Positions 1 through 12,893 of a DNA stretch of 12,893 bases are shown in pieces. The position numbers were made by a program, and so were the translations under genes. The notes under the pieces are model-generated. The model was not told where the DNA came from, ran no database searches, and worked only from the letters and a program-made list of their open reading frames with translations. How positions within the stretch are numbered: position 1 is the stretch's first letter; each line of letters opens with the position of its first letter. The stretch is taken from the IMG/VR virus record IMGVR_UViG_2617270988_000017; one strand, given 5' to 3'. Origin of the DNA: a virus (taxonomy: Duplodnaviria > Heunggongvirae > Uroviricota > Caudoviricetes).

Positions 1-1461
1 ATGAAAAAATTACTGCATCTTTTTTTCCCGCTCTCGCTGCGGGTACGTTTTCTGTTAGCAACGGCAGCAGTAGTATTGGTGCTTTCGCTTGCCTACGGAA
101 TGGTTGCGCTGATCGGTTATAGCGTCAGTTTCGATAAAACCACGTTTCGGCTGTTACGTGGCGAGAGCAATCTGTTCTATACCCTTGCGAAGTGGGAAAA
201 CAATAAGTTGCATGTCGAGTTACCCGAAAATATCGACAAGCAAAGCCCCACCATGACGCTAATTTATGATGAGAACGGGCAGCTTTTATGGGCGCAACGT
301 GACGTGCCCTGGCTGATGAAGATGATCCAGCCTGACTGGCTGAAATCGAATGGTTTTCATGAAATTGAAGCGGATGTTAACGATACCAGCCTCTTGCTGA
401 GTGGAGATCATTCTATACAGCAACAGTTGCAGGAAGTGCGGGAAGATGATGACGACGCGGAGATGACCCACTCGGTGGCGGTAAACGTCTACCCGGCAAC
501 ATCGCGGATGCCAAAGTTAACCATTGTGGTGGTGGATACCATTCCGGTGGAGCTAAAAAGTTCCTATATGGTCTGGAGCTGGTTTATCTATGTGCTCTCA
601 GCCAATCTGCTGTTAGTGATCCCGCTGCTGTGGGTCGCCGCCTGGTGGAGTTTACGCCCCATCGAAGCCCTGGCAAAAGAAGTCCGCGAACTGGAAGAAC
701 ATAACCGCGAATTGCTCAATCCAGCCACAACGCGAGAACTGACCAGTCTGGTACGAAACCTGAACCGACTGTTAAAAAGTGAACGCGAACGTTACGACAA
801 ATATCGTACGACGCTCACCGACCTGACCCATAGTCTGAAAACGCCACTGGCGGTGCTGCAAAGTACGCTGCGTTCTCTGCGTAGTGAGAAGATGAGCGTC
901 AGTGATGCTGAGCCGGTAATGCTGGAGCAAATCAGCCGCATTTCACAGCAAATTGGCTACTACCTGCATCGTGCCAGTATGCGCGGCGGGACATTGCTTA
1001 GCCGCGAGCTGCATCCGGTCGCCCCACTGCTGGACAATCTCACCTCGGCGCTGAACAAAGTGTATCAACGCAAAGGGGTCAATATCTCTCTCGATATTTC
1101 GCCAGAGATCAGCTTTGTCGGTGAGCAGAACGATTTTGTCGAGGTGATGGGCAACGTGCTGGATAATGCCTGTAAATATTGCCTCGAGTTTGTCGAAATA
1201 TCTGCAAGGCAAACAGACGAGCATCTCTATATTGTGGTCGAGGATGATGGCCCCGGTATTCCCTTAAGCAAGCGAGAGGTCATTTTCGACCGTGGTCAAC
1301 GGGTTGATACTTTACGCCCTGGGCAAGGTGTAGGGCTGGCGGTAGCCCGCGAAATCACCGAGCAGTATGAGGGTAAAATCGTCGCCGGAGAGAGCATGCT
1401 GGGCGGTGCGCGGATGGAGGTGATTTTTGGTCGCCAGCATTCTGCGCCGAAAGATGAATAA
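1..1461 (+). CDS. phoQ: Sensor histidine kinase PhoQ of the PhoPQ two-component system, complete
   Basis: The 486-aa translation reads as E. coli PhoQ essentially end to end from memory (MKKLL...[15 protein letters not shown]; periplasmic acidic patch EDDDDAEM; H-box [12 protein letters not shown]; C-terminal [12 protein letters not shown]). ATG at 1, TAA at 1459-1461. Confidence 0.97.
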
Positions 1462-2815: not shown

Positions 2816-3358
2816 TTACTCGCCTTTCTTCTGTAGCAACTTTTCCGGTACGTTTCCGGTTGTTTCTTTCAAGTAATCAGTCAGTATCTGTGGGAGGTTG
2901 TCGGCAACTCTGGCACTGGCATTACAGGCTTTAACCACTTCCCTTTTAAGCCTATCCAGCATGGCGGGGGTAATCTGTGGGAAGCTCCTTTGCATAGTAA
3001 GCGGGAGGCTGTCCATGATTGATGAAATCTGACTCGCCAGCTTTGAAAGCGCGTACAGGCAAAACTCAGTATCAATCACGTCACCGCGATCGCGCTCGTT
3101 TTTAAGTTCCTGCGCCTCCGCCTGTGCTGTCAGTAATCTGATCCTGACTCGTAAGAGTTCATCATCATCAATATCGCCTTTGTCGTTTGTAAGCTGGCTA
3201 ATTGCATTGTTAACCCTATTGTCTATCACGCTGGCAACATCATAAAACGCCTCACGGCCTTTACGTTCAACGGGAGTCACTCCCCACTTGTCGAACGCTG
3301 TCGCACTTACACGGCAGCTTTTCGCCATGTTTTTTTTGTTCATCAGGTGCGATTTCAT
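2816..3358 (-). CDS. Terminase small subunit, lambda Nu1 family
   Basis: The 180-aa product aligns along its length with lambda Nu1 recalled from memory: N-terminal winged-HTH region (NKKNMAKSCRVSATAFDKW vs NKKQLADIFGASIRTIQNW) and C-terminal region (LTAQAEAQELKNERDRGDVIDTEFCLYALSKLASQISSIMDSLPLTMQRSFP vs LTRAQADAQELKNARDSAEVVETAFCTFVLSRIAGEIASILDGLPLSVQRRFP). ATG at 3358-3356. Confidence 0.9.
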   Translation of the reverse strand: MKSHLMNKKNMAKSCRVSATAFDKWGVTPVERKGREAFYDVASVIDNRVNNAISQLTNDKGDIDDDELLRVRIRLLTAQAEAQELKNERDRGDVIDTEFCLYALSKLASQISSIMDSLPLTMQRSFPQITPAMLDRLKREVVKACNASARVADNLPQILTDYLKETTGNVPEKLLQKKGE

Positions 3359-3360
3359 TA

Positions 3361-3534
3361 ATACACCAACTTAATTACTGCTTCAGGTTGGTGTATTGTT
3401 TGCATCTTTCCCTTTTTATTCATAAAGATAGATCAAACAACGAAACCACCACCACCCCCCTGAAAAGGCTCATAAATAGCGAAAAACCGCTAGGTCGCCG
3501 CCCCGTAACGGGCCATAATTCCAGGAAGGACCCG
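3361..3534 (-). other. Lambda-type cos site, right copy (cos-R): cosQ-like, cosN, divergent cosB, directly upstream of terS
   Basis: 3493-3534 is the near-perfect reverse complement of 2593-2635 (42 of 43 positions, one 1-nt indel), with the cosN 12-mer AGGTCGCCGCCC at 3492-3503. On the minus strand it continues CGGTTTTTCGCTATTTATGA (lambda-like), then diverges (CAGGGGGGTGGTGGTGG) and ends in the 10-bp inverted repeat ATACACCAAC (3361-3370) / GTTGGTGTAT (3387-3396) beside the terS ATG. The cosN-cosB-terS order and orientation match lambda. Confidence 0.75.
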
Positions 3535-3535
3535 T

Positions 3536-3558
3536 AAAAAAGCCGGATTTCTCCGGCC
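3536..3558 (-). terminator. Rho-independent terminator ending the capsid operon
   Basis: Minus-strand stem GCCGGA-gaaa-TCCGGC followed by T6 (plus-strand A-run 3536-3540), 6 nt after the stop of the 137-aa ORF. Confidence 0.75.
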
Positions 3559-3563
3559 TTGTC

Positions 3564-3977
3564 TCAGATGGTTTTCAGTATGCGATCGATGTCGCCGTCA
3601 TCGCCCTGGTTTCTGCCATCGTATGCCATGCCAGCTGATACGGCTTGCGGGCTGTGCATGTCCATAAAGTTTTCAAAGGCTGCGGTAAGTTCCGGCGCAA
3701 CCTTCGGACGTTCCTGCTCTATGGTCATGCTAAGGATGCTTTTAGCCGTACCAACATCGATACAAGGCACGTTTGCCATTGCACGCAACAGCGGCTGATA
3801 GTCTTTATGCTCATGAAGCGCCATAATCGCATCAGCGCGCGGCTTGTCCTGCTCTTCCAGTTTGTTTAGTTGATATACGGCCTCATAGGTTGATAAACCT
3901 CTGTCAGCCATTGCCCGCGCTTCGACTTTAAATTTACTCGCCAGCGGTAGCGTCATGATGCTTTCATTCGTTGCCAT
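3564..3977 (-). CDS. Hypothetical protein, 137 aa, last gene of capsid operon
   Basis: ATG at 3977-3975 is preceded by a strong SD (AGGGGGAA) and follows the decoration-gene stop with a short gap. No family recognised. Inferred to be capsid-associated from context only. Confidence 0.65.
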   Translation of the reverse strand: MATNESIMTLPLASKFKVEARAMADRGLSTYEAVYQLNKLEEQDKPRADAIMALHEHKDYQPLLRAMANVPCIDVGTAKSILSMTIEQERPKVAPELTAAFENFMDMHSPQAVSAGMAYDGRNQGDDGDIDRILKTI

Positions 3978-3989
3978 CGTTCCCCCTGC

Positions 3990-4325
3990 TTATCGGGCCA
4001 GCGGCTGAACGGATACGCCGGAACCCGCAAAGGCGGCGCATTTTTTCGCATCGGTGTCGACGCTCTCAGGCCAGTTAACGGCGGCAATATTGAATATCCC
4101 CGTCTTGTAACACTGTGCTGATTTCTGCTTTGACGTGCCCACAGGGTACGAGGTCAGATAAACAGCCTTGCCAGATTCCTGACCATCCCACGGCTTAAAC
4201 TCGCCATTGTCTGCCAGCATCAGCGGGGTAAATTCCTGAATAACGCCAGCATCAGCGGCAAAATGTACCAACGTCGTGGATACCTGCTGACTGCCTGCAA
4301 ATAACTCAATGTATGGAGTGTCCAT
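3990..4325 (-). CDS. Head decoration protein, lambda gpD family
   Basis: The 111-aa product matches lambda gpD from memory ([23 protein letters not shown] vs [59 protein letters not shown] vs [36 protein letters not shown]). SD GGGGGGA upstream of the ATG at 4325. Confidence 0.85.
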   Translation of the reverse strand: [111 protein letters not shown]

Positions 4326-4337
4326 AGAATCCCCCCG

Positions 4338-5393
4338 TTAACCAATTTTGACGGTAACAAATTTGCGAATATCTGCCGGTACCGGCTGCGGTGCACTGTG
4401 TGTCTGCACGTACTCAATCGCCGGATCGCCGTCCTCAATCCAGTTTTTCGGGTAAAACATGTTTTGTGTTGCGCCCGTTCTTACCGCTTCCTGATCCATT
4501 ATCGCACCATAGGCCACCAGCCCTTTATTGTTGGTGTTACCCAGGACCAGCAAATCAGGCTCAAGGAAATATTTTTCGGTACCATCGCTGTCAGTGTATT
4601 TGCCGGAATAGACGATAAGGGCCAGATCACCAAGATAGCCTTTAAAGCTCACCACTTCGCCCAGGTTTTTACAGGCCAGTTCGGCGGCGGATTCTGAACC
4701 ACGGGAAAGATCGTACAGCTCACGGAATTTTTTAAAGCTGCCTAATGTGCGCCATACCTCAGCGCCCATAATCATGACGTTTGCGGGGCAACCAGCCTGA
4801 TCAGCATAAAGCTCGATGTCATAGATTGGGTCGTGCATGTCTTTATCCTGCTCGGACCATTTTTTACCCTTGGCCTGCTCTATGATGCAGTTTTCCGGTA
4901 TTTTCCAGTCGATTTCATAGCGTTCTATGCCTTCGCCCTCAATGATGTTTTTTCCGGTCGTTACCGCATTCACCGCCAGCCATTCCACGCGTGCCTTAAT
5001 GGCGTTTATCTGGCGGCGCATGTTGCCAGTAATCAGGCGCATACGGCGATAGGTAGGGTCGTTAAGCTGTGCCGGATCTTCTCCAGCCATGCGCATGATG
5101 GTTTTCGTTGGATCGATTTCGTGCTTTGGCTTCATGTAGCCAGGTTTGATTGTGCTGGTTTCGTACCCTTTATCGCGCTGAACCTGGCTACCCACCATAG
5201 GCGAACAAAACGCCGACATGGTGACTTCTTCAATGTCCAGGGTATCCAGCATGATGTTTTGCGTGCTGAATGTCGCCACGTTCGGGAAAAACAGCGTGGT
5301 AAACAGAGGGCTGAATTTAAAATCCGCAATATCCCCGCGATTCAGGTACATGAAAAGCTGGTTAGTGTTAAGTGCCGTTGCTTTGCCTGCCAT
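4338..5393 (-). CDS. Major capsid protein, lambda gpE family (HK97 fold)
   Basis: The 351-aa product aligns with lambda gpE over its full length by eye, at moderate identity (for example KPGYMKPKHEIDP vs TPGYVKPKHEVNP; DPTYRRMRLITGNMR vs DPAYRRRRIIMQNMR; LVLGNTNNKGLVAYGAI vs MVLGNTQARGLRTYGCI; YPKNWIEDGDPA vs YPKNWVTTGDPA). SD GGGGGTGA. The E-then-D gene order is the reverse of lambda. Confidence 0.92.
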   Translation of the reverse strand: MAGKATALNTNQLFMYLNRGDIADFKFSPLFTTLFFPNVATFSTQNIMLDTLDIEEVTMSAFCSPMVGSQVQRDKGYETSTIKPGYMKPKHEIDPTKTIMRMAGEDPAQLNDPTYRRMRLITGNMRRQINAIKARVEWLAVNAVTTGKNIIEGEGIERYEIDWKIPENCIIEQAKGKKWSEQDKDMHDPIYDIELYADQAGCPANVMIMGAEVWRTLGSFKKFRELYDLSRGSESAAELACKNLGEVVSFKGYLGDLALIVYSGKYTDSDGTEKYFLEPDLLVLGNTNNKGLVAYGAIMDQEAVRTGATQNMFYPKNWIEDGDPAIEYVQTHSAPQPVPADIRKFVTVKIG

Positions 5394-5599
5394 TATTCAC
5401 CCCCATAATTTTTATGCATCCCAAGCGCCGCAAGTAAATAAGAGCGTACAAGTGAACCTATCGACGGCTCCGGCGTCATCAGCGGATCCAGTCCAGCCGC
5501 AACGCCAGCTTCATAGTTTTTTTTGTGGCGCTGCTTGAGCACCTCCACGATTTCGGGGCTTATGTACACCGAAACACCGCCTTTTTTCTCTTCAGCCAT
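5393..5599 (-). CDS. Hypothetical protein, 68 aa, first gene of capsid operon
   Basis: In-frame ATG at 5599 (MAEEKKGG...) preceded by GAGG. Its stop overlaps the capsid-gene start (TAATG), implying translational coupling. The track's longer start at 5632 has no SD. Confidence 0.5.
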   Translation of the reverse strand: MAEEKKGGVSVYISPEIVEVLKQRHKKNYEAGVAAGLDPLMTPEPSIGSLVRSYLLAALGMHKNYGGE

Positions 5600-5649
5600 A
5601 GTAAGAAATTCCTCTTCGACTAAAAAAATCATAACTGGATGTTTATCCA

Positions 5650-5684
5650 GTCCTGATTATAATCAGAATTGCATTTTATGCAAT
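5650..5684 (-). promoter_or_regulatory. Candidate sigma70 promoter for the capsid operon, embedded in two palindromes
   Basis: Minus strand reads TTGCAT (5683-5678), a 16-nt spacer, then TATAAT (5661-5656). The -10 lies inside the perfect 14-bp palindrome CTGATTATAATCAG (5653-5666) and the -35 inside TTGCAT-ttt-ATGCAA (5669-5683). The first ORF starts about 55 nt downstream. Confidence 0.5.
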
Positions 5685-5764
5685 GATATTGAGTTATGTT
5701 GCAAATTATGAAATGATTATCCCGATCACGAACGCCAGTGCATCCAAAAACCTCATATGCAAAA

Positions 5765-5802
5765 GCCCGATAAGAACCCTCTGACCTTATCGGGCTTTTT
5801 TT
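5765..5802 (+). terminator. Rho-independent terminator, plus-strand orientation, probably bidirectional
   Basis: Stem GCCCGATAAG (5765-5774) / CTTATCGGGC (5786-5795) with a 11-nt loop, followed by T7 (5796-5802). There are four U on the minus-strand side. Confidence 0.6.
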
Positions 5803-5808
5803 GGGCGC

Positions 5809-5830
5809 AAAAAAGCCGGATTGCTCCGGC
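5809..5830 (-). terminator. Rho-independent terminator downstream of the 74-aa cassette ORF
   Basis: Minus-strand GCCGGA-gcaa-TCCGGC followed by T6. Same stem sequence as the terminators at 3536-3558 and 6172-6194. Confidence 0.7.
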
Positions 5831-5850
5831 TATGTGTGCTGTGTGCTGGC

Positions 5851-6075
5851 TCAGTCTCTGATCTCTTTCAGAAATTCTATCAATGCATCTATCTGTTCAG
5901 GATTTACCGCCAGCATTTCACCGGATAGAGCACATCTCACAAAACCATGCTGATCCTTTTCAATCAGTGCGCCCGTCTCCAGGAATGCGCGGTAATCATT
6001 GATGCTCATCGTCTCCATGTTGTCAGCATGGTATTTATCACGCTGTTTTAATATCTCATCAAATTTCATCGGCAT
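5851..6075 (-). CDS. Hypothetical protein, 74 aa, terminator-insulated single-gene cassette (moron-like)
   Basis: ATG at 6075 with SD AGAGGAA about 10 nt upstream. Intrinsic terminators lie both upstream (6172-6194) and downstream (5809-5830, 5765-5802). No family recognised. Confidence 0.6.
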   Translation of the reverse strand: MPMKFDEILKQRDKYHADNMETMSINDYRAFLETGALIEKDQHGFVRCALSGEMLAVNPEQIDALIEFLKEIRD

Positions 6076-6171
6076 TGTTTTTTTCCTCTGTTGTGTCTGT
6101 TTGTTTCAGATAGTAACTATGCCTGACCGTGACGAAAACCCGGTAATGCGCCATACCGTTTCAACTGGTGC

Positions 6172-6194
6172 AAAAAAAGCCGGATTTCTCCGGC
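6172..6194 (-). terminator. Rho-independent terminator ending the replication/regulatory operon
   Basis: Minus-strand GCCGGA-gaaa-TCCGGC followed by T7 (plus-strand A-run 6172-6178), 8 nt after the perC-like stop. Confidence 0.75.
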
Positions 6195-6201
6195 TGTTTG
6201 A

Positions 6202-6474
6202 TTAGCTGTCCTGGTAATTGCGCCATATTTCATCACCAGCACCATCTATACCCATTTCGGCATAAGTGCGATCGACTGCCTTTTTCAGGTCTCCGAAATT
6301 ATCCGGCGGCTCCGGTGCCCTCTGTGCCTTCCTTGAACATTCCAGCCGTCGCATCGTGATGTGATGCCGTTCCTTGTCTGTCTCCACCAGCTGCATGACT
6401 TCACCCCATCGCGCCGCCGCCCTCCGGTAAAAGCCTTTCGCCTCCAGTTCCTCCGCTATGCGGTCATGTACCAT
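6202..6474 (-). CDS. PerC-family transcriptional activator-like protein, 90 aa
   Basis: Start MVHDRIAEELEAKGFYRRAAARWGEVM carries the PerC/Pch-type N-terminal motif as I recall it. ATG at 6474 has a strong SD (GAGGGGGTGA). The track's longer version overlaps ssb and is rejected. Confidence 0.65.
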   Translation of the reverse strand: MVHDRIAEELEAKGFYRRAAARWGEVMQLVETDKERHHITMRRLECSRKAQRAPEPPDNFGDLKKAVDRTYAEMGIDGAGDEIWRNYQDS

Positions 6475-6484
6475 CGTCACCCCC

Positions 6485-6895
6485 TCAGAACGAAATATCA
6501 TCACCGTAAGAGTCATCGCCTCCCGCTGGTGGCTGATTACCCTGTGTGCCTGTGGTTTTGCGTCTGTTCCCGCCTGGACGTGCCGCGCGGGCACTGATTA
6601 CGCTGTCTGCGATAACCTGCCAGCCCTGCCGCGTTTCTCCGTTCTGTCCGGTCCACTGGCTTACCTGCATCGTGCCGGATACGCTGGCAACATCGCCTTT
6701 TTGATGTTTAGCCAGGAAGTCGGCCTGTTTGCCAAATGCGATGACCGATAACCATAACGTCGCCTGTCCGTCCTGTGCCTGGCTGCATGGCAAAGATACC
6801 GCCATACGCGCCAGCGTCATCGGTGTGCCCTTGCTGGTCTGTTTTACCTGCGGGTCGTCCACCAGCCGCCCGTAAGCGGCTATCTGTGCCGTCAT
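6485..6895 (-). CDS. ssb: Single-stranded DNA-binding protein
   Basis: 136 aa with an OB-fold-like N-terminal region, a Gly/Pro/Gln-rich linker (GTQGNQPPAGGDDSYG) and an acidic C-terminal tip DDISF resembling the SSB DDDIPF tail. The start overlaps the upstream stop (ATGA). Confidence 0.85.
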   Translation of the reverse strand: MTAQIAAYGRLVDDPQVKQTSKGTPMTLARMAVSLPCSQAQDGQATLWLSVIAFGKQADFLAKHQKGDVASVSGTMQVSQWTGQNGETRQGWQVIADSVISARAARPGGNRRKTTGTQGNQPPAGGDDSYGDDISF

Positions 6896-7143
6896 AATTC
6901 CACCTCTCCGGTTTTAACGTTGATGGTTGTTACCTGTTCCGCTTCGGCAATCTCCCGTTCTGTCAGCGTGGCAAAGTTTGCCGCCGCCGTGGTCATGAAT
7001 GCGCTTATCAGGTCGGGATGTTCCTTCGCGTATCCTTCCCGCGTGTGGCGGTCTATCGTTCTGATTGCCACCTTTAAGGTGTGCTCAGTCATGTCTAACG
7101 CTTTATATTTTGGCTCTGTTCTGTCTCTGCGTTTTTGGGTCAT
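6892..7143 (-). CDS. Hypothetical protein, 83 aa, translationally coupled to ssb
   Basis: In-frame ATG at 7143 (MTQKRRDR...) with SD GAGAGG. The track start at 7173 is GTG and sits in the iteron array. The stop overlaps the ssb start. Confidence 0.5.
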   Translation of the reverse strand: MTQKRRDRTEPKYKALDMTEHTLKVAIRTIDRHTREGYAKEHPDLISAFMTTAAANFATLTEREIAEAEQVTTINVKTGEVEL

Positions 7144-7152
7144 TTCTCGCAA

Positions 7153-7348
7153 CCTCTCACTTTTTCGCCTCACTTTTTCAAGCGTCTCACTTCGTCGCAG
7201 TTGGGATTTTCGGTTTTTCTATGTGTGTGTTTCATAAGTATTTTTTTACCCCTCACTTTTGAGGATGTATACAGGTCGAAAAGTGAGGGAGAGCGGGCTA
7301 ATTTTGGCCCTCTTTCTATCCCCCTCGCTTTTGCTCCTCACTTTTATA
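7153..7348. repeat. Iteron array, putative origin of replication of the element
   Basis: CTCACTTTT-type repeats at 7156-7165, 7169-7178, 7186-7192, 7252-7260, 7278-7289 (inverted), 7323-7333 (variant CTCGCTTTT) and 7336-7347, plus an AT-rich stretch at 7230-7248. It lies immediately 3' of the rep gene, as is typical of satellite and plasmid origins. Confidence 0.55.
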
Positions 7349-8743
7349 GCGGCGCTACATCATCCCCATCGATACGAATAACCCCATCTTTTTCCAGCTT
7401 GTACAGCCAGCGCCGGAAGTTTTTCATTTCATACCCCAGCTTTTTCATGTCATCACGTAACAGCGGGATCGTGCACTTGTCGCCGTTCTGTGTGCGTGAA
7501 CGGATGCACCCCCATAGCGCGGTATGGTTTTCCGTCTTGTTCCCTGCCTCCTCGATGCGCTCCAGTTCAACAGGAGGGCGCGGATCATCCACCACCACCA
7601 GCGACGTGATTAATTCACCGTCAGCGTCGGTAAAAAGCTCCACCACGCGTAAGTCATATGCGGCTTCTTTGAGTTCCTCCGCGTCCTTCATTTTGGTGCA
7701 TGAGATAACCAGCGCTTCGCTTCCTGCGTCCTCCCTGCGTATCCGGTATTCAGCATCCAGCGAAGCACGAAATGCACTGGAACCGCGCGCGCCTTTCGTC
7801 TCATCCTTGCCGGAATGGTGAACCACCAGCACCGTGGCCCCTGTGCGTCGTTTCAGTTCGTCACAACCACGGATAAACGCCCCATATCACGGGAATCATT
7901 TTCATCATTCCCACCAAAGCAACGCGCCAGCGTATCCAGAATAATCATGCGTACAGGTTTACCCGTTTCCCGCTCCACCTGACGGGCAGCGATAACCATT
8001 TCATCAACATCAAGCGGGGCAGCCGGAAAGATGGGGCGGTTTACCAGATACAGATTTTTCACCTGCTCATCGTGCACAACCTCCCAGGCTTTTACACGAC
8101 GCGGAACACCTATACCGCCTTCACCAACCACATAGAGAACCGCACCATGTGCAACCCTGCGGCCTCCCCACTGGCGACCAGTGGCAACATGGCACGCCCA
8201 CGATCCGGCAAGGAATGATTTATAGGACCCGCTAGCCCCGTATATGCTGCATAGCGATACCGCCGGAATAATCCCCTTAACCACGTAATCCAGTTGCGTG
8301 TCGTATCCGGTAGATCCAACGCTCATCGGTAGCGTGGTTTTTCGCTGGTGGTTTTTTTCTTCCGCCGGCTCTTTCCCGCGCACCCGTTCCAGGTATTCGC
8401 GCCAGTTCTCCCGCATATGGCTGTGCATCCCTTCGGGGTAATAATTCGCATCAGTTACACCCGCCGCCGCCAGCTTGTGCGCAATGGCATTAATATTTGA
8501 TGGCCTGATGTGGCCTGCCTTGTACAGCCGGACACAATAGCGCCCCTCGTCGATGATTCTCAGGTCTGCCAGTTCATCCAGTTGATCATCAGCCAGCACA
8601 ACGGGAGGCACATTATCGCCAGCCAGTCGCCCGTCCTGTTCCTGCCACTGTTTCGCATGTGCCCAGGCATCACTACCCGCAAAAATAATGACTTCGGTCA
8701 TCTTGTCGTAAGGCTGTTTTTTTAAGTTCGGTGCGCTTTTCAT
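7344..8743 (-). pseudogene. Replication protein (primase/helicase-like, RepA-type P-loop ATPase with C-terminal winged-helix-like tail); reading frame interrupted near 7880
   Basis: The N-terminal ORF (8743..7853) has a Walker-A-like GASGSYKS and ILDTLARCFGG. The C-terminal ORF (7832..7344) continues in another frame with VVHHSGKDETKGARGSSAFRASLD, typical of RepA/AAA_25-like ATPases. The total span is 1400 nt, not a multiple of 3. The frames join if the G4 run (plus-strand CCCC 7880-7883) is G5, giving ...DSRDMGAFIRGCDELKRRTGATVLVVHH... Confidence 0.7.
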
Positions 8744-9039
8744 TTCTTGCCCCTGAATCCGTTAACCATGGTTTTCAGCTTCTGGATGTTTGCCCGTGCC
8801 CTGGCGTTGCTGGTGGGCACGTTATGCGGCGCGGTCTGTACCAGAGAAAAATCACGCCGGAACTGATAAACAGGCATCACGCAATCATATTCGTAACCTT
8901 CACGGCGGTAAGTTACGCACCGTCCCGCCACGCCCTTAATCATTACCGTGCCGCCGTACTGGTCGCGGTAAATATCACCGCGCGTAAATTTAGGGTGAGT
9001 GTTGCCACTGGCAGTTAAGCCAGAATATTTAAGTTTCAT
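8740..9039 (-). CDS. Hypothetical basic protein, 99 aa
   Basis: ATG at 9039 with GGAG upstream. The stop overlaps the rep start (ATGA). No family recognised. Confidence 0.55.
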   Translation of the reverse strand: MKLKYSGLTASGNTHPKFTRGDIYRDQYGGTVMIKGVAGRCVTYRREGYEYDCVMPVYQFRRDFSLVQTAPHNVPTSNARARANIQKLKTMVNGFRGKK

Positions 9040-9044
9040 TATTT

Positions 9045-9278
9045 TTATTCTCCGGTGTGCTGTTCGTTATATCTGTCGTGCAATGTCTCTATTTCCTGCA
9101 ACTCATTTATTACAGGCTCAAGAAGCGTTATTAATGCCGTGACAATTCTTGATTTTTGTTTGTCGCGTTCATTGTCGCCAAGTGTTTCAAGCCATATGCG
9201 CAATATTTCGTACATACCTTCAGCGTAAGCAAGGGCACTAAATGCGCGGTCTATTGTTTCGTGGTAAATATCACGCAT
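9045..9278 (-). CDS. Hypothetical small acidic protein, 77 aa
   Basis: ATG at 9278 with SD GGGGA. Net acidic and helical-looking. Tightly packed with neighbours (1-5 nt gaps). Confidence 0.55.
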   Translation of the reverse strand: MRDIYHETIDRAFSALAYAEGMYEILRIWLETLGDNERDKQKSRIVTALITLLEPVINELQEIETLHDRYNEQHTGE

Positions 9279-9279
9279 A

Positions 9280-9501
9280 TTAATCCCCGTCCGTTGTTTT
9301 TCTTAAAACAGCTTCTGTCACGAAATCAGCATAGTTAGCGGCAATATCAAGAATATTTAGCCCTGTATCTCTGTGCTCATCAGTGCAAAGAAAGAAAAAA
9401 GCCACCCGCATAATTTCAGATATTGACGAAAGCGCATCAGCCGCATCATCAGGAACGCCGGAAAATTCTTGTTTCAGGGAATTAAAACGATCATCACGCA
9501 T
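9280..9501 (-). CDS. Hypothetical small acidic protein, 73 aa
   Basis: ATG at 9501-9499 (MRDDRFNSLKQEFSGVPDDAADAL...). The track's longer N-terminus is rejected. It shares a PD-AADAL motif with the upstream 73-aa ORF. Confidence 0.55.
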   Translation of the reverse strand: MRDDRFNSLKQEFSGVPDDAADALSSISEIMRVAFFFLCTDEHRDTGLNILDIAANYADFVTEAVLRKTTDGD

Positions 9502-9715
9502 AACCCCCCCCATTTTCACAATCAGCAACAAGAATATTTTTAGCGTCATTCAGCGACCGCGTTGCGATGTATCGGATACATTCCAGGGCGAACTGTGTCC
9601 GGTCTTTCTGTTCTTCTCCCTGCGCAAGCTCTGCAGTGCATTCAATATCGATAAGCGCGTGCATCAGCGTAGTGAGCGCGTCGGCTGCTGCGTCCGGTGT
9701 GGTTTTATTGCACAT
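9494..9715 (-). CDS. Hypothetical small acidic protein, 73 aa
   Basis: ATG at 9715-9713 (MCNKTTPDAAADAL...) preceded by a strong SD (AGGAGGTG). It ends in NGGGYA encoded by a G8 run and overlaps the next start. Confidence 0.6.
   Translation of the reverse strand: MCNKTTPDAAADALTTLMHALIDIECTAELAQGEEQKDRTQFALECIRYIATRSLNDAKNILVADCENGGGYA
9504..9511. repeat. C8/G8 homopolymer at a gene junction
   Basis: Eight consecutive C on the plus strand (G on the coding strand). It encodes the GGG tail of the upstream ORF and lies 2 nt before the ATG of the downstream ORF. Confidence 0.9.
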
Positions 9716-9896
9716 GGCACACCTCCTGACGAATACGGGCGGCGAATACAGCAACACAACCGGACGGGCAACGGCTACGCGCTTCGCGTTCCGTCCAGGC
9801 GGTTACGTGGATGATTTGATGTTCTGACGCGCCAAAGATGATAAAGCGCCAGAGAAAGGCGGTTTGAGAATGTACAAGGGTAGGGATAGTAGCCAT
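9705..9896 (-). CDS. Small protein, 63 aa; possibly Icd-like (host cell division inhibitor family), tentative
   Basis: ATG at 9896 with SD GAGGAGG 8 nt upstream, TAA at 9707-9705. The WRF and FAARIRQ motifs resemble what I recall of Icd-like small proteins from P4-like islands, but this is unverified. A diverged tandem copy lies 369 bp upstream. Confidence 0.5.
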   Translation of the reverse strand: MATIPTLVHSQTAFLWRFIIFGASEHQIIHVTAWTEREARSRCPSGCVAVFAARIRQEVCHVQ

Positions 9897-10056
9897 GTTG
9901 GCAGCCTCCTCAGTGTGGTTAAGATAACCGCCACCGGAAACGCCAATTTCGCTGGTGGCGGACTGTACAGGGTTGGCGTAACCGGACACTGAAGAAACCG
10001 GCGCGGATTGCTCCGCCCCCGTACAGCCCACCATTGATAAGGTGTGACTATGCGGC

Positions 10057-10082
10057 ACAAAAAAACACGCGGGGCGCGTGTT
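10057..10082 (-). terminator. Strong Rho-independent terminator signature inside the upstream tandem copy
   Basis: Minus strand reads AACACGCG-CCC-CGCGTGTT followed by TTTTTTT (plus-strand A7 at 10059-10065). It is GC-rich with an uninterrupted U-tract. Confidence 0.65.
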
Positions 10083-10265
10083 ATGCGCTTCAGTTTTGCC
10101 CAGGACGCCAATCCCGGCACCCGTTTTATGAGGTGCGCGGGAATCATAGCTATTTTCGACACTGGCGATCAACTGGTTTTTTTCTCCGATATTCAGGGCC
10201 AGAAAACGCCACACAAAGGCCGTTTGTGTGTGTACAAGGTGTGGTATATGATTTACGGCAACCAT
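10083..10265 (-). pseudogene. Degenerate tandem paralogue of the 63-aa ORF (or translated leader); no in-frame stop before the terminator
   Basis: ATG at 10265 with SD AGGAG. The first 30 or so codons are homologous to the downstream ORF (PHLVHTQTAFVWRFLAL vs PTLVHSQTAFLWRFIIF) with synonymous and conservative changes. The frame then runs through the terminator without a stop, and a C-terminal-like motif (RVFLCRI vs AVFAARI) appears only in another frame. Confidence 0.35.
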
Positions 10266-10293
10266 AACGGCTCCTAGTTTACGTTGTTGGTTA

Positions 10294-10328
10294 GACGCCC
10301 CGTATGTGTTCCCAGCACTGCGGGGCGT
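10294..10328. promoter_or_regulatory. 8-bp inverted repeat ACGCCCCG / CGGGGCGT with a 19-bp spacer in the divergent control region
   Basis: Arms at 10294-10301 and 10321-10328, in the 5' leader of the minus-strand small-ORF operon and upstream of the RHH promoter. Confidence 0.4.
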
Positions 10329-10353
10329 TGATTTTTGTGTAATGGCAAGTACA

Positions 10354-10395
10354 ATGGTAATTACCATGTAGGTATAGTAATGAAGGGTAATTACC
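10354..10395. promoter_or_regulatory. Two GGTAATTACC operator-like palindromes at the RHH gene promoter
   Basis: Perfect 14-bp palindrome ATGGTAATTACCAT at 10354-10367 and GGTAATTACC at 10386-10395, centres 30 bp apart. The second abuts the RHH ATG. A TATAGT -10-like hexamer is at 10373-10378. Confidence 0.6.
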
Positions 10396-10569
10396 ATGTC
10401 AACACCATTAGAAAAACGTTCGCCTCCATACCAAATGCGATTACCGGAAGACTTCAGAGCGCAGCTAGAAGAAGCAGCTAAGGCCGATGGCGACACATCT
10501 TTAGCCACTTGGATTAAACGCGTTCTCCGCAAAGAATTACAGCAACGCGGCATAGAACCCAAAGGATAA
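10396..10569 (+). CDS. Ribbon-helix-helix (Arc/CopG-like) DNA-binding protein, 57 aa
   Basis: ATG at 10396, TAA at 10567-10569. The product MSTPLEKRSPPYQMRLPEDFRAQLEEAAKADGDTSLATWIKRVLRKEL has the typical RHH pattern (beta-strand YQMRLP, then two helices). It is absent from the ORF track because it is under 60 aa. Confidence 0.7.
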   Translation: MSTPLEKRSPPYQMRLPEDFRAQLEEAAKADGDTSLATWIKRVLRKELQQRGIEPKG

Positions 10570-10611
10570 AAACTATCAGCGCCGTGGTGTGAGGTATTAC
10601 GGCGCATTGCT

Positions 10612-10800
10612 ATGCAGGACAACACAATGACCGATAAAGAATTGACCAAAACATTATCACCGGCACGGAAAAGACGGCGCAGAAAGATAGAGCATGAATC
10701 AGAAAGATTCGCGCCATGTGCTTTTGCCCTTGAGCAATTCCTTAAAGAGTACAGGGAAAAGCGCTCATTGCAGGTATGGCAACGAACTGAACCAGACTGA
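10612..10800 (+). CDS. Hypothetical small basic protein, 62 aa, downstream of the RHH gene
   Basis: ATG at 10612 (alternative ATG at 10627 with AGGA upstream). It contains an ARKRRRRK basic patch. The coding call is weak. Confidence 0.4.
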   Translation: MQDNTMTDKELTKTLSPARKRRRRKIEHESERFAPCAFALEQFLKEYREKRSLQVWQRTEPD

Positions 10801-10894
10801 TTGCATTGCCCACCAGCCTGATAGCGGCTATCATCCCCGTGCTTATGTTTGGGATCACATACACATAAGGCGCAGCGGGTTAATTGTTCAGAAA

Positions 10895-10922
10895 GGCGGC
10901 TCCATATCGGGGCCGCTTTTTT
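10895..10922 (+). terminator. Rho-independent terminator between convergent alpA and the RHH operon
   Basis: Stem GGCGGCTCC (10895-10903) / GGGGCCGC (10909-10916) followed by T6 (10917-10922). Confidence 0.65.
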
Positions 10923-10948
10923 CGTGTTTGTCATATCTGTGATACCCG

Positions 10949-11155
10949 TTAAGCAGCCGTTCCGCGTGCTTCCTCTTCGCGTTCTTTCTGCCAGGACAAC
11001 ACATCATCCTCATACCATCCGCGACGGCGTAAACCAACGCGAAAACCCTGCGGAAATTCTCCGGCGTTGATCATGCTTTGCAGCGTGCTGTCTGCCTTGA
11101 TGTGGATAATTTTTTTTACTTCCTGGCGAAAGATAATTTTTCTGATTGCTTCCAT
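10949..11155 (-). CDS. alpA: AlpA-family phage transcriptional regulator / excisionase-like protein
   Basis: The 68-aa product matches the AlpA pattern (IIHIKADSTLQSMINAGEFPQGFRVGLRRRGWYEDDVLSWQ vs CP4-57 AlpA ...TGMARATIYDWLNPKSPRYDATFPKKRMLGVKSVGWIEAEIDEWL). ATG at 11155. Confidence 0.8.
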   Translation of the reverse strand: MEAIRKIIFRQEVKKIIHIKADSTLQSMINAGEFPQGFRVGLRRRGWYEDDVLSWQKEREEEARGTAA

Positions 11156-11288
11156 CGTGATTTACCTTGTGAATCCGGTGTATTCCGGTGACAAATACGG
11201 TAAATCATCGGATATGGGTAAAAACAGTTCCCACCGTTTTTAAACGGTATACACCGTTTTTTATATTGATGATTTGAAATGGAATTAT

Positions 11289-11311
11289 AAAAAAAGCGGC
11301 ATTTCTGCCGC
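11289..11311 (-). terminator. Rho-independent terminator after the int-proximal small ORF
   Basis: Minus-strand stem GCGGCA-gaaa-TGCCGC followed by T7 (plus-strand A-run 11289-11295). Confidence 0.7.
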
Positions 11312-11651: not shown

Positions 11652-12893
11652 CTACACGGCTCGGATACCCCTTTTACCACTGGCGAGGGTTACGCCCGTC
11701 GCCGCAGCCTCGACAAATTCGCCCCACCAGCGCATCAGCACGATGCGTTTTTCTATGTAGTTGCTCCGGTTGTATGCCCGTCTAACTTCGTTGGTGTCGA
11801 CGTGGGCAAGTGCCGCCTCTATTACGTCCGGCTCGAATCCTTCCTCGTTCGCTGCTGTGCTGAATATGGCGCGTAATCCATGAGACACCAGCACGCCAGC
11901 GAATCCCATACGCCGCAATGCTGCGTTAGCTGTCTGGCTGTTCATCGGCTGCTGTGGGTCTTTCAGACTTGGGAAAACGTAATTGCGGTGGTGGCTGATT
12001 GGTTTCATGGCCTCCAGCACCGCCATAGCCTGACCGGAAAGCGGGATAACGTGATCCCTGCGCATCTTCATGCGTCCGGCAGGTATCGTCCATTGCTTCG
12101 CGTCCAGGTTGATTTCATCCCACCGCGTTGATGACGCTTCGGCGGGACGGGTTACGGTCAGTAACTGCCATTCAATCAGTAATCTGGTCTGCCGTTCTGT
12201 TGCCGATACTGATAAAGCCTGCATAAGCTCGGGCAGCTGTTCGGGGCGGATTGTTGGCATATGTTTTTTTACAGGTGAGGGAAACGCCTTACGCACATTC
12301 ATAGCCGGATTGGCATCAATCAGCCCACTGTTGGCGGCGTAATCCATTACCTCATTAACGCGCTGTAAAACCCGCTTGAGTGTTTCCAGGTTGCCGCGCT
12401 CCTTGATGGGGGTAAGCACTTCAACGAACCTTCGGGCGGTGAGGGTATCTATTGGCGTGTTGCCGATGAACGGGAATACATATTTATCCAGCGAACGCCA
12501 GATGTCTTTAATCGTGTTGGGGGCCAGATTCTGGCTGATTTTCACCTGGTACCATGCCGCCGCCACATTTTCGAACGTGTTCCCTTGTCTTCGGGCCTCT
12601 GTCTCTCTTTTTTGCCTCTCGTGGTCCTGCGGGTCAGTTCCGGCACTGATTAACGTCCTGTACTCGCTACGGCGTTTTCTGGCATCAGCCAGGGAAACAT
12701 CTTCAAGCGATCCAAAACTCAGCAATATTCTTTTTTTGTCCGATGGTCGGTAGTAGGAAAATCTCCAGAGTTTTGATCCAGACGGTTTGACCAGGAGAAA
12801 AAGCCCTCCGCCGTCCTGCAGGGTGTACTCCTTTTGCGCTGGTCTGGCTGCTTTGATCTGCACTGTGGTTAATGGGTGTGTTTTTCTCGCCAT
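11652..12893 (-). CDS. int: Site-specific tyrosine integrase, P4 family
   Basis: 413 aa with an N-terminal arm-binding-type region (KEYTLQDGGGLFLLVKPSGSKLWRFSYY) and a C-terminal catalytic domain (HGLRAIFST...RAYNRSNY). The ATG is at the last three bases of the window, so the upstream region and att site are outside it. Confidence 0.95.
   Translation of the reverse strand: MARKTHPLTTVQIKAARPAQKEYTLQDGGGLFLLVKPSGSKLWRFSYYRPSDKKRILLSFGSLEDVSLADARKRRSEYRTLISAGTDPQDHERQKRETEARRQGNTFENVAAAWYQVKISQNLAPNTIKDIWRSLDKYVFPFIGNTPIDTLTARRFVEVLTPIKERGNLETLKRVLQRVNEVMDYAANSGLIDANPAMNVRKAFPSPVKKHMPTIRPEQLPELMQALSVSATERQTRLLIEWQLLTVTRPAEASSTRWDEINLDAKQWTIPAGRMKMRRDHVIPLSGQAMAVLEAMKPISHHRNYVFPSLKDPQQPMNSQTANAALRRMGFAGVLVSHGLRAIFSTAANEEGFEPDVIEAALAHVDTNEVRRAYNRSNYIEKRIVLMRWWGEFVEAAATGVTLASGKRGIRAV

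Follow-up and report, generated by a model that had tools for sequence, protein, structure and literature searches.

The closest described relatives of the element analysed here are phage-inducible chromosomal islands (PICIs) of Escherichia coli that occupy the site between roxA and phoQ. In O157:H7 strains the island at this locus was described as O-island 51, CP-933C or Sp7 by Flockhart et al. (PMC3378721). Sp7 of strain Sakai, the same island, is the capsid-forming PICI (cf-PICI) EcCIEDL933, whose layout is given in 10.1101/2022.09.08.507074. The corresponding site of strain CFT073 is occupied by EcCICFT073, a PICI that carries homologues of a capsid protein (c1499) and a decoration protein (c1500) (Fillol-Salom 2018, PMC6092414). 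PerC alleles are already catalogued as accessory genes of E. coli PICIs (PMC6092414, PMC11773190).

The PerC-family proteins of enterohaemorrhagic E. coli fall into groups with different properties. [quoted passage not shown] LEE1 is activated by group 1 proteins through relief of H-NS silencing (PMC4764244), whereas PchE-type proteins do not activate it (PMC6265319, PMC11773190). PchA has no homology to DNA-binding proteins, and it activates LEE1 only where the promoter is silenced by H-NS/StpA/Hha/YdgT (PMC4764244). The phenotypes of PchE, reported for the Sakai-type allele only, concern surface structures. When expressed from a plasmid, pchE decreases csgD expression, curli, biofilm and stpA expression and increases flhDC and fliC expression and motility (PMC6265319, PMC7369912); these effects come mainly from plasmid overexpression, and those of the deletion are small (PMC7369912). 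The gene is transcribed in uninduced O157:H7 cells and its expression falls 6-7-fold on SOS induction (PMC6265319).

The window, by which we mean the whole stretch of 12,893 nucleotides that was analysed, begins in phoQ on the plus strand, and all genes of the island are on the minus strand (Table 1). The element is a PICI of the EcCICFT073/O-island-51 type inserted between roxA and phoQ. Gene by gene, it has the layout of EcCICFT073-type elements (int-alpA-...-rgdR-rep-ori-accessory/packaging, about 11 kb, roxA/phoQ site), and annotated relatives of the island are found between roxA (ycfD) and phoQ in O157:H7 strain 493/89, Sakai and CFT073. The initial annotation had placed the gene studied here inside a phage satellite adjoining phoPQ, and the phoQ gene at the edge of the window together with the relatives at the same site bear this out. 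The proximity to phoPQ reflects just the attachment site used by this PICI family.

Table 1. Features of the island and its chromosomal flank, in order along the window.
Feature	Position	Strand	Remarks
phoQ	1..1461	+	chromosomal flank of the attachment site
Packaging module, whole	2816..5632	-	gene order as c1499/c1500 of EcCICFT073 (PMC6092414)
Nu1-like small terminase	2816..3358	-	
phrog_1999 protein	3564..3977	-	
D-type head decoration protein	3990..4325	-	
Lambda-E-type major capsid protein	4338..5393	-	
orf79	5393..5632	-	
Promoter-like cluster upstream of the packaging operon	5656..5712	-	36% GC segment
Terminator T2	5808..5831	-	AGCCGGA-GCAA-TCCGGCT + T-run; near-identical to T1; end of the cassette common to Sakai Sp7
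orf74 (= ECs_1589, phrog_1957)	5851..6075	-	single gene between T1 and T2
Intrinsic terminator T1	6171..6195	-	AGCCGGA-GAAA-TCCGGCT + T7; terminator scan; identical in Sakai Sp7
pchE-type PerC-family gene	6202..6474	-	90 aa + stop; Pfam PF06069 full length
Shine-Dalgarno-like GGGGGTGA	6477..6484	-	adjoins the ssb stop codon (6485-6487); 2 nt before the pchE ATG
ssb (single-strand DNA-binding protein)	6485..6895	-	Pfam SSB, E 1.7e-16; phrog_44
Small ORF, phrog_1231	6892..7173	-	overlaps the ssb start by 4 nt; 252 nt in annotated relatives
Iteron-rich intergenic region, repeated AAAGTGAGG	7150..7345	.	between rep and the orf84-ssb-pchE block; read from the sequence
RepA-type helicase replication gene (rep)	7344..8743	-	Pfam AAA_25; phrog_2850 matched in two pieces
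rgdR (DUF4222, RGD motif)	8740..9039	-	Pfam DUF4222, E 2.1e-23
AlpA-like regulator	10949..11155	-	weak AlpA match, 17.9 bits
Integrase	11652..12893	-	Pfam integrase domains; far end of the island

The rgdR gene is a homologue of ECs1581, a prophage gene already known to regulate type III secretion (PMC3378721). An Ash/Icd-like region sits between it and the AlpA-like gene. An intact replication initiator is expected of a functional EcCICFT073-type PICI, and in the window rep is frameshifted: alignment with intact 1401-nt copies reveals a 1-nt deletion in a run of five G near position 7884, and this may be an error of sequencing or a genuine defect. The iteron-rich region that follows is the probable replication origin; the origin was placed 3' of the rep gene by Fillol-Salom 2018 (PMC6092414). 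No portal or TerL open reading frame is present within the window, where the packaging genes with recognizable products are the E-type capsid, the D-type decoration protein, the phrog_1999 protein and the Nu1-like TerS. The full cf-PICI set, consisting of capsid, protease, portal, head-tail connectors, HNH, TerS and TerL, is thus not contained in the window. An assignment of the element as the cf-PICI EcCIEDL933 was considered and rejected, the packaging module being of the CFT073 type.

The gene at the centre of this study is a pchE allele, pchE being the PerC homologue that is known as 'group 3' in enterohaemorrhagic E. coli. It runs on the minus strand from an ATG at 6474 to a stop codon at 6204-6202, and its 90 codons encode the protein MVHDRIAEELEAKGFYRRAAARWGEVMQLVETDKERHHITMRRLECSRKAQRAPEPPDNFGDLKKAVDRTYAEMGIDGAGDEIWRNYQDS. 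Its residues 1-89 align to positions 1-89 of the 90-position Pfam PerC profile (PF06069) with an E-value of 3.9e-43 and a score of 146.1 bits, compared to a gathering cut-off of 22.6 bits. The initial annotation had assigned the gene to this family from an N-terminal motif; the full-length match vindicates that motif, and the assignment is correct far beyond chance. The protein also matches phrog_994 (E 3.2e-47). The gene is labelled PerC family regulator in the RefSeq records of many E. coli genomes. Among 74 members on which residue conservation was measured, L10, G14, R17, R18 and A19 are invariant, and all five are kept in the window protein, as are the near-invariant A7, E11, R22, W23, C46, T70, M74, G75 and R85. 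A longer, 130-aa reading with a GTG start at 6594 is over-extended, because its PerC match begins only at residue 41, the one encoded by the ATG at 6474; the extension overlaps ssb. Two plus-strand open reading frames on the same DNA (6168-6359 and 6361-6597) were set aside, the region being explained by the minus-strand PerC match.

The closest named relative is PchE of Sakai (ECs_1588, called pchE in the RefSeq record of that strain), which is also 90 aa long and is identical at 81 of 90 residues (90%). The likeness extends to the neighbouring genes: in both islands orf84 and ssb are upstream, a terminator and the ECs_1589 homologue are downstream, and the insertion site is roxA/phoQ. The group 3 assignment is based on this identity, on the common orf84-ssb-pchE-T1-ECs1589-T2 cassette and on the site. 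The two proteins differ by nine substitutions, and the surrounding islands are different. In Sp7 the replication gene encodes a primase, and the HK97-type capsid is accompanied by protease, portal and TerS/TerL, whereas the window contains the RepA-type helicase and a lambda E/D/Nu1-type module.

EcCICFT073 shares with the window the position of its PerC gene after ssb, the c1499/c1500 type of packaging and the attachment site (PMC6092414). Its PerC homologue (WP_000233305.1) is 83% identical to the window protein over 78 residues. However, it is 82 aa long, its gene runs directly into a T2-type terminator, orf74 is missing, and the replication gene is a primase instead of a RepA helicase. PerC of EPEC and the group 1 proteins PchA/B/C of O157:H7 are more distant. 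They belong to the same Pfam family, have the core AE.LE..G.[YW]RRA..RW...C, are small and helical and are borne on mobile elements, but their identity to the window PchE is only about 37-42%. A 102-aa cluster to which the window protein is about 37% identical is probably the PchABC group. EcCIMP1_025, another PerC-family protein encoded by a Gram-negative PICI, was described by its authors as an accessory regulator with ANR resemblance, and the resemblance between PerC and ANR proteins was thus already noticed by Pick et al. (PMC11773190). The identity stated in that paper is about 40%; it represses LEE1 in Citrobacter rodentium, and EcCIMP1 has no capsid genes (PMC11773190). The gene has therefore already been named and studied, and there are published reports of its carriage on PICIs, of its inactivity on LEE1 and of the changes that it causes in curli and flagella. 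As a discovery the finding is ordinary, since both the gene and the family of E. coli phage satellites that carries it are well known.

Because only 10 nt separate it from ssb, its Shine-Dalgarno-like sequence directly adjoins the stop codon of ssb and its own stop is followed by a strong terminator, pchE is the last gene of an origin-proximal orf84-ssb-pchE block. The ssb stop codon is TGA at 6487-6485, and its arrangement with the Shine-Dalgarno-like sequence suggests that pchE is translationally coupled to ssb. T1 begins 6 nt past the pchE stop and has a hairpin with a calculated free energy of -12.6 kcal/mol. A third hairpin was found downstream of T2. A terminator directly after the PerC stop codon is a property of the E. 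coli islands and is absent from the distant homologues.

The terminator scan found no minus-strand terminator between rep and pchE. In the same interval a relaxed sigma-70 scan gave no convincing promoter dedicated to pchE, but only weak candidates with 7-8 of 12 matches, so that the sequence does not explain the published basal transcription of pchE. Co-transcription of pchE with ssb and the replication gene, as the initial annotation had proposed, is plausible from this arrangement and agrees with the transcription in one direction reported for PICIs of Gram-negative bacteria (PMC6092414). The gene context stated in that annotation is correct: ssb is the next gene upstream, the replication gene, of RepA type, is further upstream, and capsid genes are downstream. 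Co-transcription with rep sits uneasily with the basal, SOS-lowered expression of pchE (PMC6265319).

The family is small and confined in its host range. When 1.84 billion cluster representatives were searched exhaustively with phmmer, only 105 matched at E <= 0.001, and the named hits and loci are from Enterobacterales in every case. A primase gene, with or without ssb, is located immediately upstream and on the same strand in at least 17 of 55 loci of PerC relatives in other Enterobacterales. This order is found in more than 10 enterobacterial genera, for instance in E. albertii, E. ruysiae, Atlantibacter, Kluyvera, Shimwellia, Enterobacter, Chimaeribacter, Pantoea, Erwinia, Lonsdalea, Leclercia and Lelliottia, as well as in three different types of E. 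coli PICI. The window and Sakai alleles of pchE differ at 19 nucleotides and 9 amino acids, which corresponds to a dN/dS of about 0.23, and pchE is therefore under purifying selection. Of the neighbouring genes, ssb has a value of 0.07, orf74 of 0.12 and orf84 of 0.32. By this measure pchE is constrained, although less tightly than ssb.

An AlphaFold model computed with the 74-member family as input (mean pLDDT 85.6) has helices at residues 5-13, 16-27, 33-50 and 60-74. PchE is thus predicted to be a small all-helical protein, the first 50 residues of which form a TPR-like array of helical hairpins, with a linker rich in proline and a conserved fourth helix behind it. The model shows neither a helix-turn-helix nor any other recognisable DNA-binding fold. 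A Foldseek comparison of the model with the Protein Data Bank gave nothing below E = 1, and a sequence search of the same database gave no homologue, only chance matches to PACSIN helices.

The only NCBIfam model matched by PchE is ANR_neg_reg (20.4 bits, E 3.3e-4), and the score is below the curated cut-off of 32 bits. The same model is matched at E <= 0.01 by 57 of the 74 PerC members, with a best value of 1.5e-8, and the PerC and ANR families are therefore related. The ANR (AraC negative regulator) family (NF033650) includes Aar of EAEC and Rnr of EPEC and Citrobacter, and the first 50 residues of PchE align to its 54-position profile. The signature residues of ANR proteins are A10, E14, A22, W26, A29, W43, R47 and C51 (PMC4983702). 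Six of the eight are present in PchE, where A10, E14, A22, W26, R47 and C51 correspond to A7, E11, A19, W23, R42 and C46, positions that are 91-100% conserved in the PerC family. The other two are replaced, A29 by V26 and W43 by H38; tryptophan occupies the latter position in 24 of the 74 members. The two families also share a predicted three-helix hairpin and pleiotropic effects on virulence, adhesion and H-NS-controlled genes (PMC4983702, PMC10148876). ANR proteins are under 10 kDa and consist of three helices only, whereas PchE, at 90 aa, has four predicted helices and an extra C-terminal part of 40 residues that contains the conserved T70, M74, G75 and R85. ANR proteins act by binding to other proteins, namely to regulators of the AraC type, to H-NS and to Ler (PMC4983702, PMC10148876). 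No gene for an AraC-family partner is found next to pchE.

The explanation that we favour, with a probability of roughly 0.6 for the whole, is that pchE is a host-directed accessory regulator carried by a PICI of the EcCICFT073/O-island-51 type, with a mechanism that we infer. PchE would act in trans on the host and not as a sequence-specific activator of the capsid promoter of the satellite. By analogy with PchA and the ANR proteins, it may be a small adaptor that contacts regulatory proteins or H-NS-type nucleoprotein complexes. Its action would re-tune the regulons of surface structures, with curli/csgD and stpA turned down and flhDC and flagella turned up, and the gene would thus be an accessory regulator of the lysogenic-conversion type. 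Its transcript would end at T1. Such an adaptor would explain the pleiotropic and allele-specific effects of PchE. The phenotypes are those of the literature, and the molecular partner and mode of action are deduced from the analogy.

The predicted TPR-like fold and the ANR-related core support a mechanism of protein contact or of nucleoprotein remodelling for the PerC family. Co-precipitation of PchA with H-NS and with Ler was negative (unpublished data of the authors of PMC4764244), and the ChIP signals of PchA on DNA were independent of H-NS (PMC4764244). Direct DNA binding of low specificity through the conserved R17, R18, R22, R36 and R42 is therefore possible. The initial annotation had suggested cross-talk to host virulence regulons as a possibility. 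Cross-talk with host regulons is documented for the 90%-identical PchE, in the effects on csgD/curli, stpA and flagellar genes and in an increase of ler of about 2-fold (PMC6265319, PMC7369912).

The conserved place of PerC genes after primase/ssb, seen outside E. coli PICIs in 17 loci or more, speaks to some extent against the favoured reading, as it hints that PerC is more than cargo and has a role in the life cycle of the satellite. PerC might be an anti-silencer or anti-regulator belonging to the replication module, which relieves H-NS-type silencing or neutralises a host or helper regulator on induction, the effects on host virulence being side-effects. PchA is an H-NS anti-silencer (PMC4764244), the dN/dS of pchE means that the gene is maintained by selection, and the island has promoter-containing segments of low GC content, the lowest being 5600-5799 (0.36) and 11100-11299 (0.345). 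The island as a whole, however, is about 50% GC and is therefore not a typical H-NS target, and pchE expression is lowered by SOS induction (PMC6265319). Furthermore, the presence of PerC is variable among EcCIMP1-like elements (PMC11773190), and only 'some' E. coli PICIs carry it (Fillol-Salom 2018, PMC6092414). We regard this role as unlikely, although it is the strongest of the alternatives.

A broader form of the same idea is equally tentative. PerC-type proteins may be a conserved part of the primase/ssb replication module in PICI-like satellites across Enterobacterales, where they would serve as minimal TPR-like, ANR-linked adaptors directed against H-NS-type silencing or against a regulator of the host or the helper, which they would neutralise. 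If PerC is such an adaptor of the satellite cycle, the effects on LEE, curli and flagella are by-products. Only two points may be worth following up by experiment, namely that primase, ssb and PerC are linked in a conserved way and that the predicted fold is TPR-like and related to ANR.

The preferred reading, that of a host-directed regulator, has also to be weighed against the proposal of the initial annotation that the protein is an internal late activator of the capsid promoter. In this reading PchE would be made from the early or replication transcript after induction and would turn on the capsid/packaging promoter. The gene is indeed at the end of the early block, with two terminators between it and the packaging operon. 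The operon has a promoter-like region of its own in an AT-rich segment that could be regulated: it contains a perfect -10 TATAAT at 5661-5656 and the palindromes TTGCATAAAATGCAA and TGATTATAATCA. The literature yielded no published work that tests what PerC homologues do in the life cycle of PICIs. The perfect -10, however, fits repression better than a need for activation, and from its sequence the packaging promoter looks more repressible than activator-dependent.

Comparison of the islands is more telling. The ssb-pchE-T1-orf74-T2 cassette is common to the window and Sakai Sp7, with about 93-99% nucleotide identity per gene, and orf84 is shared as well. In the alignment the homology ends abruptly just past T2, and the same cassette precedes two unrelated packaging modules, in Sp7 an HK97-type one. 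The upstream regions of the two module types have no shared word of 9 nt or longer. The promoter-like cluster is mostly kept in EcCICFT073, where the -10 and TGATTATAATCA are retained and TTGCAT is changed to TTGCTC, and it is absent from Sakai Sp7; it therefore moves with the CFT073-type packaging module and not with pchE. The orf84-ssb-pchE-terminator cassette, for its part, moves as a unit between satellites that differ in their replication and packaging modules, which argues against a dedicated role of pchE at the capsid promoter. It follows that pchE belongs with the replication module, independent of the packaged content.

The distant homologues agree with this. In the primase-linked loci of other Enterobacterales, at least 17 of 55, no homologue of either capsid type is found downstream of PerC. 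What comes next varies: it may be a gene for a tape-measure-like protein, one for a PRiA4_ORF3 protein, or simply the island's end. The homologues of Enterobacter, Kluyvera, Pantoea, Erwinia, Lonsdalea and others follow primase/ssb in this manner, and EcCIMP1 has a PerC gene in the absence of structural genes (PMC11773190). Nor is expression of pchE confined to induction, the gene being on in uninduced cells and going down when the SOS response is triggered (PMC6265319). Activation of the capsid promoter by PchE is for these reasons improbable.

Still less can be said for PchE as a classical activator of LEE1 (ler) that aids type III secretion in the manner of PerC and PchABC. The protein belongs to the same Pfam family, ler was raised 2.1-fold on overexpression of pchE (PMC7369912), and some PerC homologues encoded by PICIs activate LEE according to Fillol-Salom 2018 (PMC6092414). 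In the account of Porter 2005 given in PMC11773190, however, the PerC-like genes of EcCIEDL933 and EcCICFT073 were without effect on LEE1-lacZ, and the homologue of EcCIMP1 is a repressor of LEE1 (PMC11773190). The group 3 proteins are dispensable for ler and espA in the work of Iyoda and Watanabe 2004 cited above, and the similarity of the window protein to the probable PchABC cluster is low. The reduced type III secretion of an O-island 51 deletion was due to RgdR and not to PchE (PMC3378721). Activity on ler-type promoters, as put forward in the initial annotation, is thus largely refuted by the literature already, and we consider it very improbable.

That pchE is a decaying, non-functional remnant of a defective island is just as hard to believe: rep of this copy is frameshifted and the CFT073 allele is truncated to 82 aa, but the pchE reading frame is intact with all family-invariant residues, its dN/dS is low, it has a good Shine-Dalgarno sequence and a terminator, other strains encode an identical protein, and transcription and phenotypes are documented for the 90%-identical allele (PMC6265319).

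A protein 100% identical to the window PchE is annotated in another E. coli record. Of 5426 complete E. coli genomes, 1695 contain similar DNA. The best coverage of the window by a single piece in the complete genomes is 79%, at 97.8% identity, and the integrase end is the part that differs.

Comparison of the window with the islands of Sakai (Sp7, L002) and CFT073 (EcCICFT073, L003) shows that the island is a mosaic. It shares its type of ssb-pchE-orf74 cassette with Sp7 and its type of packaging module with CFT073, except at the position of the small terminase. Here the window encodes a Nu1-like protein, whereas CFT073 has an unrelated protein of 144 amino acids, and direct comparison of the two detected no similarity. 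The replication genes also differ, encoding a RepA helicase in the window but primases in Sp7 and CFT073.

Features of the island and their positions in the window
Feature	Position	Strand	Remarks
Nu1-like small terminase	2816-3358	minus	
Promoter-like cluster	5656-5712	minus	AT-rich (36% GC); upstream of the packaging operon
Terminator T2	5808-5831		intrinsic; loop GCAA; near-identical to T1
42-aa ORF	6117-6245	minus	overlaps T1 and the 3'-terminal part of the PerC gene
Terminator T1	6171-6195		intrinsic; loop GAAA
RepA-type replication gene	7344-8743		two ORFs
rgdR homologue (DUF4222)	8740-9039		RGD motif at residues 20-22
409-aa ORF	9705-10934	minus	Ash-family domain; Icd-like motif (..HxQTAFxWRF..) present twice

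Orf74 (ECs_1589, phrog_1957) is a single gene flanked on both sides by the near-identical terminators T1 and T2. EcCICFT073 is devoid of orf74, and its shortened PerC gene (82 amino acids) continues directly into a T2-type hairpin (L003 8208-8260), so that the absence of orf74 looks like a deletion through recombination between the two terminators.

The -10 element of the promoter-like cluster is a perfect TATAAT, and the cluster also includes the palindromes TTGCATAAAATGCAA and TGATTATAATCA. Most of the cluster is retained in EcCICFT073, where the first palindrome reads TTGCTCAAAATGCAA, and sequence comparison did not find it in Sakai Sp7. The cluster is a possible operator for some regulator.

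The replication gene is interrupted by a one-nucleotide deletion in a GGGGG run near position 7884, relative to the intact 1401-nt copies of two other strains. The split is due either to a sequencing error in this homopolymer or to a real deletion, in which case the island is replication-defective. The start of this gene overlaps the stop of rgdR by 4 nt. RgdR has been published as the regulator through which O-island 51 activates type III secretion (PMC3378721).

The 42-aa ORF, a hypothetical protein in RefSeq annotations of relatives (WP_001301569.1), is probably a spurious call. The 409-aa ORF is a tentative gene model. Annotations of its region differ among relatives, some giving a single long 'Icd-like' CDS and others a number of short CDSs. 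Two plus-strand ORFs of 57 and 62 residues (10396-10800) overlap it, and the GC skew is reversed across the stretch of overlap.

A 171-kb record labeled 'plasmid pSTEC1024_3' (CP061267.1) contains this island together with roxA and phoPQ, all of it chromosomal DNA. The replicon was probably misassigned or misassembled.

Downstream of the primase-PerC block, Enterobacter, Chimaeribacter and Lonsdalea (L012, L018 and L023; about 6300-11000) carry a small lipoprotein-like ORF, an ORF of 106-108 residues and a protein of 600-1100 residues that has a weak tape-measure match. This arrangement may represent a different, undescribed type of satellite-like element.
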